Below, piece by piece: positions 1 to 4,135 of a stretch of DNA of 19,784 nucleotides. The notes under the pieces are model-generated. The model searched no databases and was not told the DNA's origin. It was given only the letters and a program-made list of their open reading frames with translations. How positions within the stretch are numbered: the stretch's first letter is position 1; every line of letters begins with the position of its first letter. The position numbers were made by a program, and so were the translations under genes. The DNA is taken from positions 1 to 19,784 of IMG/VR virus record IMGVR_UViG_2690316049_000007; one strand, given 5' to 3'. This DNA is from a virus. Lineage: Duplodnaviria > Heunggongvirae > Uroviricota > Caudoviricetes.

Positions 1-477
1 TCATACCTCAATCTCTCTGACCGTTCCGCCTGCTTCTTTGAATTTTGCAATCAGGCTGTCAGCCTTATGCTCGAACTGACCATAACCAGCCCCCGGAAGT
101 GAAGCCCAGATATTGCTGCAACGGTCGATAGCCTGACGGATATCACCGCGATCAATCATCGGCAAAGCGCCACGCTCTTTAATCTGTTGCAATGCCACAG
201 CGTCCTGGCTTTTCGGAGAGAAGTCTTTCAGGCCAAGCTGCTTGCGGTAGGCATCCCACCAACGGGAAAGAAGCTGGTAACGTCCGGCTGCTGTTGATTT
301 GAGTTTTGGGTTTAGCGTGACAAGTTTGCGAGGGTGATCGGAGTAATCAGTGAATAGCTCTCCGCCAACAATGACGTCATAACCATGATTTCTTGTTTTC
401 TGACGTCCGTTATCAGTTCCCTCTGACCACGCCAGCATATCGAGGAACGCCTTACGTTGATTATTGATTTCCACCAT
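1..477 (-). CDS. R: Phage endolysin, lambda R-type lytic transglycosylase (158 aa)
   Basis: Complete minus-strand ORF. Translation ([27 protein letters not shown]...GGTVREIEV) matches lambda R as I recall it nearly residue for residue. ATG at 477-475, stop at 3-1. Confidence 0.9.
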
Positions 478-784
478 CTTCTACTCCGGCTTTTTTAGCA
501 GCGAAGCGTTTGATAAGCGAACCAATCGAGTCAGTACCGATGTAGCCGATGAACACGCTCGTTATATAAGCGAGATTGCTACTTAGTCCGGCGAAGTCGA
601 GAAGGTCACGAATGAACCAGGCGATAATGGCGCACATCGTTGCGTCGATTACTGTTTTTGTAAACGCACCGCCATTATATCTGCCGCGAAGGTACGCCAT
701 TGCAAACGCAAGGATTGCCCCGATGCCTTGTTCCTTTGCCGCGAGAATGGCGGCTAACAGGTCATGTTTTTCTGGCATCTTCAT
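461..784 (-). CDS. S: Class I holin, lambda S-type (107 aa) with Met1-Lys2-Met3 dual-start motif
   Basis: Translation [32 protein letters not shown]... matches lambda S as recalled. ATGs at 784-782 and 778-776 give the holin/antiholin dual start. The 3' end overlaps the R start. Confidence 0.9.
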
Positions 785-1028
785 GTCTTACCCCCAATAA
801 GGGGATTTGCTCTATTTAATTAGGAATAAGGTCTATTACTGATAGAACAAATCCAGGCTACTGTGTTTAGTAATCAGATTTGTTCGTGACCGATATGCAC
901 GGGCAAAACGGCAGGAGGTTGTTAGCGCGACTTCCTGCCACCCGCTTTCACGAGGTCATGTGTAGAAGGCCGCAGCGTAACTATCACCGATGAATTCATG
1001 ATAGCCAGTGGCTACGACTCAGTTTGGA

Positions 1029-1155
1029 TTGTGGCGGCCGGAATCGAACCGGCTTCCATCGGTGCGCTGCCGATTGCAGTACGCGCGGCGGTCAGCTACA
1101 TGACTAGTATTTTCACTGTCGCCTATCTGCTAGCTCGCCATTGAGCTTCACCACA
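1029..1155 (-). ncRNA. tRNA-like element, non-canonical (T-arm, anticodon-like arm and acceptor/D-arm-like 5' part separated by about 57 nt)
   Basis: Minus strand reads ...ATCGG-CAGCGCA-CCGAT-GGAA-GCCGG-TTCGATT-CCGGC-CGCCACA-A. This gives a canonical T-arm with TTCGATT loop and a 5-bp stem with 7-nt loop before it. A 5' TGTGGTG (1155-1149) can pair with CGCCACA with one G-U, followed by a D-arm-like GCTC-AATGGC-GAGC. The total is about 127 nt, with no encoded CCA and a loop that has A at position 33 and C at 37, so it is not a standard tRNA. Confidence 0.35.
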
Positions 1156-1220
1156 ACGATAAGAGCACTCGGTGCATTTAAGCCAAGCCCCATAAGGGAG
1201 AATGCTCTTACCTGTTGTGC

Positions 1221-1249
1221 AAACAAAAAAAGCCCACAGGAGGTGGGCT
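1221..1249 (-). terminator. Rho-independent terminator, tR'-like, downstream of the late promoter
   Basis: Minus strand AGCCCAC-CTCCT-GTGGGCT followed by TTTTTTTGTTT: 7-bp GC-rich stem, 5-nt loop, U-run. Confidence 0.6.
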
Positions 1250-1290
1250 TGTGATGGTTGCTGAATGCAAAAGCAGCAGCATATGTGAAT

Positions 1291-1320
1291 ATTATGGCTA
1301 AATGGCTAATTGCATGTCAA
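1291..1320 (-). promoter_or_regulatory. Candidate late promoter pR' (-35 TTGACA, 18-bp spacer, -10 CATAAT) overlapping the 3' end of Q
   Basis: Minus strand TTGACA (1320-1315), 18 nt, CATAAT (1296-1291). Sits at the Q stop and about 60 nt upstream of the tR'-like terminator, the expected position for the Q-modified late promoter. Confidence 0.45.
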
Positions 1321-1816
1321 GGCTTTTAACAGCAAGATGCTTAACTTTCTCAACACGTTTACGCATTTTGAAAGCATTTTGCATTGGTTGGTACAAAACA
1401 AATAATGACGCTTTCAGGATGTCGTCAATTTCGTTTCTACAGGTTGCCAGTGAAGGTTTTCTCCATCCCTCGCCACCACGTCCACACATCTTGCGTGGCT
1501 TTGCAGTCGCGTGATAGTAGGATGCAATTGCTCGCTTAGATGAACCATGAGCGTAGTAGCTGAGGAGGATGCCAAAGGCTTTCTTGTCAATGTACATGAC
1601 GGAATCAACGACCTGAGAAATCAACATTCCATCATCATCATTACACATTGGCCTTGTCATAACTCTTCCCGGCTCTACGCTCTCCATGAACTTCGCTATT
1701 ACGCTGCTCATGCGCTTTTCCAGACGACCTGAATAAACCCATGCGCCCCACAGTTCAAGCCAGCCATTCAGCCACTCGTGCTGCTCTTTGGTGAGGTTTA
1801 GTTCTCTTATGCCCAC
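1298..1816 (-). CDS. Q: Late-gene antitermination protein Q (phage 82/21, QuuD-like family), 172 aa, GTG start
   Basis: Position between nin region and lysis genes. Motifs ELWGAW ... CNDDDGML ... LLSYYAHG resemble the Q/QuuD family as recalled (ERWGAW, ICDDDAM, LLVDYYVVG). GTG at 1816 preceded by GGGAGAAGG. Confidence 0.8.
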
Positions 1817-2478
1817 GCGCCTTCTCCCTGTACCTGAATCAATGTGAGGTTTCCGCAGAACACTGCGCCGGTATCGATATACATCTGGTTGGAAAACTTG
1901 AGTGGTTTCACTGCTGGCGTATGACCAAAGATGAACGTGTCCGCGCCTTTGATTTCTTTCACGATCCCGTCTTGTGAGTTGCTGATTCGTTCGCGGTTCC
2001 AGATTACCTGCTGATGATCAACTGGCTTTCCAAACTCGTATTTATCACAAGGATAATCGGCGTGGCAGATGACATATTTTTTACCTTTGCTCACCAGTTC
2101 GATGATTAACGGAAGTTCACCTGCTTTATGGGCAAGAGCTTTAGCCAGAATTTCTTTGTCGTAATCGAGATTAAAGAACCAGCCACCGCCATTAAGCAGC
2201 CAGTGATTGACGTTTCCATGCTCTGATAAGCCATCAATCATCATTTGCTCATGGTTTCCACGTACAGCTCTGAACCAGGGGAATGTGATTAATTCCAGGC
2301 ATTCGACGTTCTCTGTACCGCGATCAACCAAATCGCCCACCGAGATAAGCAGGTCTTTTTTGGTGTCGAATCCTATCGTCTCCAGTTTTTTCATCAGGTT
2401 CGTGTAGCATCCGTGCAGATCGCCAACTACCCAAATATTTCGGTATTTGCTGCCATCAATTCTTTCGTAATAGCGCAT
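1807..2478 (-). CDS. ninI: Ser/Thr protein phosphatase (lambda PPase, NinI/orf221 homolog)
   Basis: Translation from [25 protein letters not shown]... with GDLVDRG and GNHE metallophosphatase motifs matches lambda phosphatase as recalled. Start placed at ATG 2478 (GGAG upstream) rather than the longer ORF start at 2553. Confidence 0.9.
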
Positions 2479-2662
2479 CTCTTTCACTCCATCCGCGATG
2501 AACCATGAGAACGTCGTTGACGATGGCGTGCATTTTCCCGTCTTTATCATCAACGTATTTTCTGACCGTACCGCGACTACATTTCAGTCTGCGTGCTACT
2601 TCTGTCTGATTTCCGTATGCTTCAACGAGCATGTCTGGAATGGTTTTTACTGAGAACGTCAT
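2456..2662 (-). CDS. ninH: NinH (lambda orf68 homolog), 68 aa
   Basis: Size and position match lambda NinH. ATGA overlap with ninG stop at 2662-2659. Confidence 0.8.
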
Positions 2663-3270
2663 GCGGCCTCACTTCTGCTATTTCGCAGGTCTTTGAGTTT
2701 CTGTTGGTACTCTGCCTTGATCGCCTTGCACTCTTCGATAGTCCAGCGATGGCGGTTATGGTTTGATTCGATTTCGTCTACTGCTTCCTGCCCGATGCGG
2801 CTAATCAGTTCGACGCGATACGGAACGAGATTTCCGCTTTTGTGCTGGTTGCACACCACGCATTGCTTGTGAATATTGCGTTCATCAAATCGGAGTTGAG
2901 GTGCCGCAGCAGTTGTCCGGTAATGCCCGGCATCCCACTGAGCAGACGTGAGCGTTCCGCACGAGATACATGGTAAGTCGCGGTCTCTTTCTCTGATGAA
3001 GGCGTTTACGGCTTGTTGGGCTTGTTTAATCCAGTAACTGCGGGGCTTTAAGGCGAGTTTTCGAATCTTAAGTTTATCTTTCTGTTTCTGCTCCTCTCGT
3101 CGTCGTTTCTTCTCTGCTGCCTTTTCCGCTTTTTCGCGTTCTTTGCTTCGTCGTTCGAGTGCTATCTTGGTTCCACACTCTGGAGAGCACCACCACTGAT
3201 TAGCGAATGCAGGGTGAAACCATTCCCGACATTCTTCGTTTTTACATCGTCTTCGCGCTAGTTTGGCCAT
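2659..3270 (-). CDS. ninG: NinG / Rap recombination-associated endonuclease (203 aa)
   Basis: Cys-rich N-terminus ([10 protein letters not shown]...CSPECG), basic coiled segment and Cys/His-rich C-terminus, size about 204 aa, position between ninF and ninH as in lambda. Confidence 0.85.
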
Positions 3271-3439
3271 CGTCTTCTTCCTCGTACATTGAACTATTCG
3301 GATCGCTCATCAGTTCTGCGCAGCAGTGCTCACACACGTGAACTTCCAGCACATGCAGCTTCTGACCGCAGTTAGCGCACGTTAAAGCTCGCTCGACGCT
3401 TTCTTTCTGGTATTGAAGGGATTGGGATGGGCTAAGCAT
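3242..3439 (-). CDS. ninF: NinF-like small Cys-rich protein (65 aa)
   Basis: [46 protein letters not shown]... matches lambda NinF as recalled. Overlaps the ninG start. Confidence 0.8.
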
Positions 3440-3815
3440 TATTGGCGTCCTGCATCATGAGAAAGACAATCATGGCGGCACGGAGTGGATTGTCATATGC
3501 GACACCAACATTCGGTCCGGCATCATCAAACAAGTCCCTTGCGTTGTCTGTAGCGCACGGCATTGAGGGATTGTCTAAAATTATGCTGATGTTGTTTTCA
3601 GTGATAATCGGCCATGCGTCTGCTGGGTTTGCGCATGGGTTAAAGGATCCGCGCTCAACCTCTACTTCAACTGCGTCTCCGTTTACAATGTCTCCCTCAA
3701 ATGAGATAAACACCATCGCGCCATTCTCACCTTCTTTGTAATCCGGTGATCCGTTATGAATGGCTTCGAATACCGCCACGTTAATTTCAAAATCACTTAA
3801 CTGTGAATAATCCAT
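3432..3815 (-). CDS. Hypothetical nin-region protein (about 127 aa; ORF extends to 3857 with a GTG)
   Basis: Long minus-strand ORF in gene-dense nin region. Most plausible start is ATG 3815 (MDYSQLSDF...) with GAGG 8 nt upstream. Acidic protein, no motif recognised. Confidence 0.6.
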   Translation of the reverse strand: MDYSQLSDFEINVAVFEAIHNGSPDYKEGENGAMVFISFEGDIVNGDAVEVEVERGSFNPCANPADAWPIITENNISIILDNPSMPCATDNARDLFDDAGPNVGVAYDNPLRAAMIVFLMMQDANNA

Positions 3816-3960
3816 TGTCATTTCCTCGCACGATGTCTTAGCCACCGGATATCCCACAGGTGAGCCGTGTAGTTGAAGGTTTTTACGTCAGATTCTTTTG
3901 GGATTGGCTTTGGTTTATTTCTGGAGCGTTTCGTTGGAAGGTATTTGCAGTTTTCGCAGA

Positions 3961-4135
3961 TTATGTCGGTAATACTTCGTCGCTGTCTCGCCACACGTCC
4001 TCCTTTTCCTGCGGTAGTGGTAACACCCCTGTTGGTGTTCTTTCACACCGGAGACACCATCGATTCCAGTAAGGTTGTCCTGGTCGAAAGCGATCGTCTT
4101 CCTTTCGCTCTCCACATCGATAACAGTGCTTCATG
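3961..4135 (-). CDS. Small zinc-ribbon protein at the NinE position (57 aa)
   Basis: ATG 4135-4133 overlaps the methyltransferase stop (ATGA). [32 protein letters not shown] carries two CxxC pairs. A competing overlapping frame (3915-4115) exists. Confidence 0.45.

Follow-up and report, generated by a model that had tools for sequence, protein, structure and literature searches.

The late region of bacteriophage 21, in which the promoter pR', a Q-binding element (QBE), a sigma-dependent pause element (SDPE), and the terminator tR' go together with the antiterminator Q21, has been examined by Shi et al. 2019 (PMC6606751) and Yin et al. 2019 and, reportedly, by Guo et al. 1991. Three families of Q proteins that share no sequence similarity are distinguished, represented by Q21 (PF06530), lambda Q (PF03589), and Q82 (PF06323) (Yin et al. 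2022, PMC9388147). In phage 21, the C:G pairs at -21 and -13 are essential for Q21 action, and base contacts in the Q21 complex are made by H95, A124, R127, and R128, with R113 placed in the minor groove (PMC6606751). Yin et al. loaded Q21 on templates that contained only -40 to -1 of pR'21 plus a pause element; therefore, the QBE lies within the promoter, as it does in the DNA described here. The Q protein of phage L (gp23) shares 80% identity with Q21, from which it departs after residue 94; an altered specificity was expected for it, with the general comment that three of the contact residues are different, and AATTATCC/ATTTAGCC, which overlaps its gene at the 3' end, was proposed as the probable QBE (Zaworski et al., bioRxiv 10.1101/2020.10.05.325894). 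In addition, an "Sf6" specificity class of late antiterminators was listed in the paper on phage epsilon34 (ε34) (PMC2629481).

A stretch of viral DNA of 19,784 nucleotides (hereafter the window) was analyzed here, which as a whole is Sf6/IME10-like (57-64% covered at 97.7% identity). A previous sequence-only reading had placed a TTGACA/18 nt/CATAAT promoter on the minus strand, with its -35 in the last codons of Q, a position with which the promoter scan agreed; the whole observation, i.e., a promoter over the end of Q followed by an intrinsic terminator, was confirmed. The cassette very probably serves a lambdoid (Sf6/IME10-like) phage as its late-gene switch, working by phage-21-family Q antitermination. 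The annotated genome record OL657228 served as the phage 21 reference for aligning the window; it carries the -35 of pR', the upstream (QBEu, ATTGAGCA) and downstream (QBEd, AATGAGCA) Q-binding subsites, the -10, the late start, the SDPE, and tR', with tRNA-Asn and tRNA-Thr after tR'. A comparison with the late promoter regions of phages 82 and 21 had been suggested by the same reading; the phage 21 part was run, and the elements align in order and register with OL657228. The features of the locus are as follows.

3270-2659, minus strand: NinG
2662-2456, minus strand: NinH
2553-1807, minus strand: NinI-type phosphatase
1298..1816, minus strand: gene for the Q antiterminator, 172 aa (open reading frame; PF06530, E=1.1e-25; solved Q21 structures 6JNX and 6P18, E~1e-92)
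1320-1315, minus strand: -35 hexamer of pR', TTGACA (promoter scan; aligned with the annotated pR' -35 of phage 21)
1311-1304, minus strand: QBEu, AATTAGCC, with the hexamer TTAGCC at -25 to -20 and C at -21 (aligns to phage 21 QBEu)
1303-1296, minus strand: QBEd, ATTTAGCC, with the hexamer TTAGCC at -17 to -12 and C at -13 (aligned with phage 21)
1296-1291, minus strand: -10 hexamer of pR', CATAAT, after an 18-nt spacer (promoter scan; pR' in the Sf6 and HK75 records)
1284, minus strand: inferred start A (+1), 7 nt past the -10 (aligned with the annotated late start of phage 21)
1283-1278, minus strand: predicted SDPE, TATGCT, -10-like, +2 to +7 (aligned with phage 21 TAAGCT(G))
1281-1259, minus strand: 5' hairpin of the leader (type B, see below), +4 to +26, -8.2 kcal/mol (folding)
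1250-1230, minus strand: hairpin of the tR' terminator, +35 to +55 (scan and folding; rho-independent terminator in the HK629 record)
1231-1221, minus strand: U-tract, T7 at 1231-1225 followed by GTTT, with predicted release at about +60 to +62
784-461, minus strand: holin S, the first late gene under control of the cassette (PF05106, E=2e-30; open reading frame)
477-1, minus strand: lysozyme R, after S (open reading frame)

Pfam matches of window Q were restricted to PF06530 (the Q21 family) and DUF1133; at E<=0.001 no match to PF06323 (the Q82 family) was obtained in window Q, only PF06530 and PF06576, and Pfam gave no match to PF03589 (the lambda Q family) either. Window Q and Q21 are 85% identical, with identical residues 1-94, and window Q is 10 aa longer; the DNA-binding C-terminus (~70 aa) has diverged from Q21 and carries R95 and N128 where Q21 has H95 and R128. 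On the basis of sequence, window Q is a member of the phage 21 family and belongs to its Sf6/L specificity subclass. The sequence-only reading had instead called the system phage 82-type, in line with its view of the Q protein, which would imply a Q82-family protein and the qut geometry of phage 82. What it linked to phage 82 was the short leader, but such a leader is a known trait of phage 21, whose record has the terminator at +3 to +50; the promoter also matches pR' of phage 21 element by element. As window Q belongs to PF06530, which is unrelated to PF06323, and matches the Q21 structures, the label is wrong and a phage 82-type system is hardly credible.

Inside Q, plus-strand positions 1491-1523 appear to retain paQ, the antisense promoter annotated in phage 21, with a CII-binding repeat TTGC-N6-TTGC (TTGCGTGGCTTTGC) at 1491-1504 and a -10-like TAGGAT at 1518-1523 that aligns with the -10 of phage 21 paQ.

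The sigma-70 promoter overlaps the 3' end of Q and is oriented into the late genes S and R. The -35 lies within the Q codons CTT GAC ATG (the tail of Q at 1321-1298 reads LDMQLAI*), the last eight codons of Q encode the -35 together with QBEu, and the stop codon TAG at 1300-1298 falls inside QBEd, which also takes in the first base of the -10. TTGACA/18 nt/CATAAT is an 11/12 match, albeit with a suboptimal 18-nt spacer, and had the top promoter score within positions 1-4000. It was the single site of its kind (one mismatch or fewer) in the whole window, compared with 0.11 expected; because at least one such site was also present in 18 of 200 shuffled windows (9%), the motif on its own is only suggestive, and the promoter is convincing because of its conservation and context. 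Terminator-like sites were common as well (eight found by the scan vs. 4.6 expected). These figures are what would speak for a chance co-occurrence of promoter- and terminator-like motifs that have no function. The position directly after Q, the exact conservation in about 160 related loci, and the co-variation with Q residues all speak against it; such an accident has next to no probability, and is excluded because of the conservation.

A different reading is that the hairpin mainly ends the early-right (nin-Q) transcript and that the true late promoter lies further downstream. This arrangement is suggested by the record of phage HK629 (JQ182735), in which "rho-independent terminator" is the sole annotation of the hairpin and the "putative late promoter pR'" stands ~90 nt past it (positions 2190-2195 of locus L003). 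However, the annotated hexamer of HK629 is TCTACG and has no Q-binding repeats nearby, and the stretch around it is part of an HNH-endonuclease insertion that is absent from the window. In the window, the promoter scan found no other good promoter on the minus strand from 1290 to 785, and the arrangement of -35, QBE, -10, and SDPE that precedes the hairpin is conserved throughout the family. A promoter further downstream is thus very improbable, and the one annotated in HK629, lacking a QBE, was rejected as the late promoter; its placement is probably a mis-annotation, with the conserved TTGACA-QBE-CATAAT over the 3' end of Q left unannotated there. The two roles of the hairpin are compatible in any case, as it would stop unmodified early transcripts too.

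QBEu and QBEd form an exact 8-bp direct repeat with a spacing of 8 bp, and both subsites sit between the -35 and the -10 in the register of phage 21, as observed in the alignment to the annotated record. The hexamer is TTAGCC in the window vs. TGAGCA in phage 21. The relationship between the hexamer and Q was examined in two sets of loci, i.e., 80 IMG/VR loci encoding window-type Q (Sf6-type) and 78 readable loci encoding Q21-type proteins. The -35 TTGACA was invariant in both (80/80 and 78/78). All 80 Sf6-type promoters conformed to TTGACATGCA(A/G)TTA(G/T)CCATTTAGCCATAAT, with TTAGCC repeats of which the upstream subsite is sometimes TTATCC, and all 78 readable Q21-type loci had TGAGCA repeats, so that the type of QBE was perfectly linked to the type of Q C-terminus.

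A more diverse set of 63 loci comprised the window, seven phages, and 55 usable family members taken from representative genomes of Enterobacterales. A direct repeat with a period of 8 was present in all of them, and the gap between QBEd and the pause element (TA...T), which is 12 nt in the window, was also 12 nt at 58 of the 63 loci, i.e., at all those correctly placed by the scan. The five others (L191, L193, L195, L206, and L210) were mis-registered by the automated QBE caller and were instead read by eye; the gap is apparently 13 nt in three or four of these. Promoters that overlap Q are common in the family; with the stop codon as reference, QBEu starts between -23 and +17. Across the 63 loci, N or K at residue 128 was accompanied by T at hexamer position 2 (17/17) and R128 by G at the same position (45/46), R95 by C at position 6 (23/24) and H, Y, L, or I at residue 95 by A (39/39), while R at residue 124 went with the cores TGGACA and TGACCA. 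All four hexamer combinations were found (TGAGCA, TGAGCC, TTAGCC, and TTAGCA). These counts overstate the number of independent events, because the loci surveyed are phylogenetically related. One locus of Shimwellia pseudoproteus (L174, NZ_WBXP01000045) has R95 yet TGAGCA and is the sole exception to the rule relating residue 95 to position 6.

The co-variation strongly supports TTAGCC/TTAGCC as the predicted cognate QBE of window Q. It may also correspond to a residue-base code, in which residue 128 may read QBE position 2 (R with G, N with T), residue 95 may read position 6 (R with C, other residues with A), and residue 124 may read the core (R with GA/CC); the window may then fall into the TTAGCC class defined by R95 and N128. 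In this form, the code goes somewhat beyond the general remark on contact residues in the phage L paper, and it offers structural biologists a cheap, testable specificity map of Q21-type antiterminators, although as an incremental addition. A broader reading, which joins such a modular code for the Q21 family to expression of the type-B leader as a small RNA in lysogens, is regarded as possible but tentative.

Downstream of the -10, the start context, the pause element, the leader, and the terminator follow in close succession. The stem of tR' consists of 8 bp (AAGCCCAC/GTGGGCTT) with a 5-nt loop (CTCCT), and the hairpin alone has a predicted energy of -11.9 kcal/mol, compared with -19.7 kcal/mol for the tR' hairpin of phage 21. 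A strong intrinsic terminator about 60 nt downstream had been claimed by the sequence-only reading; the distance is right when taken as transcript length, because the U-tract ends near +60 from A1284, whereas "strong" was slightly generous. Its reading of the region as a Q-dependent pR'/qut/tR' unit was supported by the presence of S and R downstream and by base-by-base homology to the late region of phage 21, which is annotated and has been characterized by experiment, as was its remark that the leader is much shorter than the lambda 6S RNA (~62 nt here vs. ~194 nt in lambda). For the 64-nt leader, the folding energy was -21.5 kcal/mol (z = -4.3), and none of 200 shuffled sequences folded as well.

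Relatives of the locus split into two discrete leader types just downstream of the -10. Type A, which is phage 21-like, forms one long hairpin (+3 to +41) followed by U7, with a leader energy of -20.2 kcal/mol. Type B was found in 14 of the 80 Sf6-type loci, in HK629, and in two of the 78 Q21-type loci (L114 and L145), and a diverged form is present in Hafnia phage yong1; the stem of tR' is kept and the loop differs in yong1 and L114. Since type B is spread over Sf6-type, Q21-type, and Hafnia loci, the leader is not tied to the Q/QBE pair but assorts independently. Both leader types retain the pause element TA(A/T)GCTGC, as well as its spacing from the QBE. In one further locus (L064, IMGVR_UViG_2537562173_000011), a type-B leader is broken in the middle of the 5' arm of the terminator (…AAGCCCACC, then unrelated sequence), and tR' is apparently missing after an otherwise intact pR'/QBE.

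The terminated leader of ~60 nt might also act in trans as a small RNA in lysogens, an addition to the late-switch explanation that is speculative and made by analogy with StxS of Stx phages, a short RNA constitutively made from pR' and ended at tR' in lysogens (PMC7547250). On this idea, the two leader types would carry different regulatory cargo. Several features are consistent with it: pR' is constitutive and the leader terminated in Stx phages is a small RNA bound by Hfq (PMC7547250), the type-B leader contains a 5' hairpin, a U-tailed terminator, and the unpaired stretch ACCAUCACA, and the leader type is independent of Q/QBE. Recombination at the short conserved flanks of the leader explains independent assortment equally well, however, Rfam gave no family match, and StxS and the window leader have no sequence relation. 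A regulatory role of this kind appears rather unlikely.

The late-switch explanation itself combines the elements, register, homology, and family co-variation observed here with start, pausing, Q loading, and read-through as known from phage 21 biochemistry. Sigma-70 RNA polymerase would start at pR', at about A1284, and sigma region 2 would re-bind TATGCT at +2 to +7, leading to a pause within the first ~15-20 nt. When Q is absent, transcription would end at the hairpin and U-tract to give an RNA of ~60-62 nt. Once Q has accumulated, two protomers are predicted to occupy AATTAGCC/ATTTAGCC and to dock on the paused polymerase, one of them forming a ring at the RNA exit channel through which the RNA would be threaded, so that hairpins would be blocked and the Q-modified polymerase would ignore tR' and the terminators downstream. 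Window Q would recognize TTAGCC rather than TGAGCA because its DNA-reading residues differ (H95R and R128N), which would correspond to the already recognized Sf6/phage L specificity class.

The right edge of the unit can be located by homology to lambda, which begins directly after the U-tract with the post-tR' region and runs to gene S; thus, the unit of exchange comprises Q, pR', QBE, leader, and tR', and the terminator marks its right edge. The stretch that runs from the -35 through the U-tract measures ~98 bp, and the gap between Q and holin S is 513 nt. This implies that the Q-pR'-leader-tR' unit is exchanged as a cassette, within which the leader and terminator swap independently of the Q/QBE pair. 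Of 5,426 complete E. coli genomes compared with a 206-nt query, 429 matched it in part, and 40 covered at least 80% of the query. Among the loci examined, the window alone joins an Sf6-type Q/QBE, a type-B leader, a lambda-like flank, and the "CTCCCTTATGG" insert; since each piece is known, the combination represents ordinary lambdoid mosaicism.

Several structures were observed in the spacer between tR' and S. Directly after tR' (1220-1150, minus strand), the arms GCACAACAGGTAAGAGCAT and AGTGCTCTTATCGTTGTG pair in a long hairpin (-33 kcal/mol, z = -3.8), whose arms are also found in lambda; the insert at its apex is hypervariable, and different phages have at least seven unrelated sequences there, each about 30 to 200 nt long. 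Further on in the late leader lies a tRNA-like cassette (1157-1030, minus strand), in which an acceptor-like stem of 9 bp (GTTGTGGTG/CGCCACAAT) is combined with a D-arm (AGCTCAATGGCGAGCT) and a perfect T-arm (GCCGGTTCGATTCCGGC); its central part contains about 55 additional nt. ARAGORN found no tRNA gene in the window, and Rfam gave only a weak tmRNA-like match at 1084-1026 (18 bits vs. a gathering score of 47) and, on nine related loci, nothing at the gathering threshold. The 18 related copies of the insert are nearly identical and thus uninformative for a covariation test, and the fold has z = -1.6. In lambda, the same stem arms flank an insert of unrelated sequence, and the changes in the stem appear to be compensatory (GTGCTG/CAGCAC vs. 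GTGGTG/CGCCAC). In phage 21 and Sf6, the post-tR' slot is occupied by real genes for tRNA-Asn and tRNA-Thr, and tRNA genes are also present in GF-2 and HK639. A second terminator-like hairpin (GGCAGGAAGTCGCGCTAACAACCTCCTGCC, then GTTTTGCC) lies at 940-900 on the minus strand, about 120 nt upstream of S, in the lambda-homologous spacer; it is conserved with lambda and falls below the T-run threshold of the scan.

With these results, the late promoter, QBE, pause element, start, and tR' can be placed to the base in the annotation, and the assignment of Q can be corrected from the phage 82 to the phage 21 family. The cassette is otherwise ordinary and already known, having been annotated or described in related phages; the only points that are modestly new are the family-wide residue-to-base co-variation and the independent assortment of the two leader types.

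Compared with known systems, lambda shares with the window a constitutive promoter, a sigma-dependent pause, Q loading, and a terminator in the same genomic slot, but its Q belongs to the unrelated family PF03589, its pR' is separated from the Q stop codon by ~45 nt, and its leader is ~194 nt long; neither a PF03589 Q nor a ~190-nt 6S-type leader was found in the window. What the window has instead is the phage 21-type set, i.e., a PF06530 Q upstream, a promoter, a tandem QBE, an SDPE at +2 to +7, and an early intrinsic terminator. Like the window, phage 21 has the -35 TTGACA, a tandem 8-bp QBE with C at -21 and -13, a 7-nt distance from the -10 to the SDPE, the start context ATTC(A/G)CA|TA, and a short leader with an intrinsic terminator within about 60 nt. 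Phage 21 differs in having a 17-nt spacer rather than 18 nt, the -10 AACACT rather than the near-consensus CATAAT, and one long hairpin with an RNA of ~50 nt, whereas the type B of the window has two hairpins and an RNA of ~62 nt. The 10 additional residues of window Q put the promoter inside its reading frame and, unlike in phage 21, no tRNA-Asn/Thr genes follow tR' in the window. Closer relatives are found in Sf6 (gene 59), phage L (gp23), and HK75 (the "Sf6 specificity" class; Casjens et al.; Zaworski et al.), whose Q proteins are 97-99% identical to window Q; the 30-bp promoter/QBE of Sf6 is identical to that of the window, its record lists "P R' ... putative late promoter", qut, and tR', and the HK75 record likewise annotates pR' with qut and tR'. 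These three phages have the type A leader and terminator, whereas the window has type B. HK629 has the type-B leader and terminator in common with the window (98% identity over the 105 nt from the -35 region to the U-tract), and together with most other type-B loci surveyed it has a different flank past the U-tract, where that of the window is lambda-like. In Hafnia phage yong1, the 105-nt module is 79% identical and the QBE is Q21-like. In the cultured Escherichia phages PhiR12_1 to _5, the same 105 nt are 100% identical to the window.
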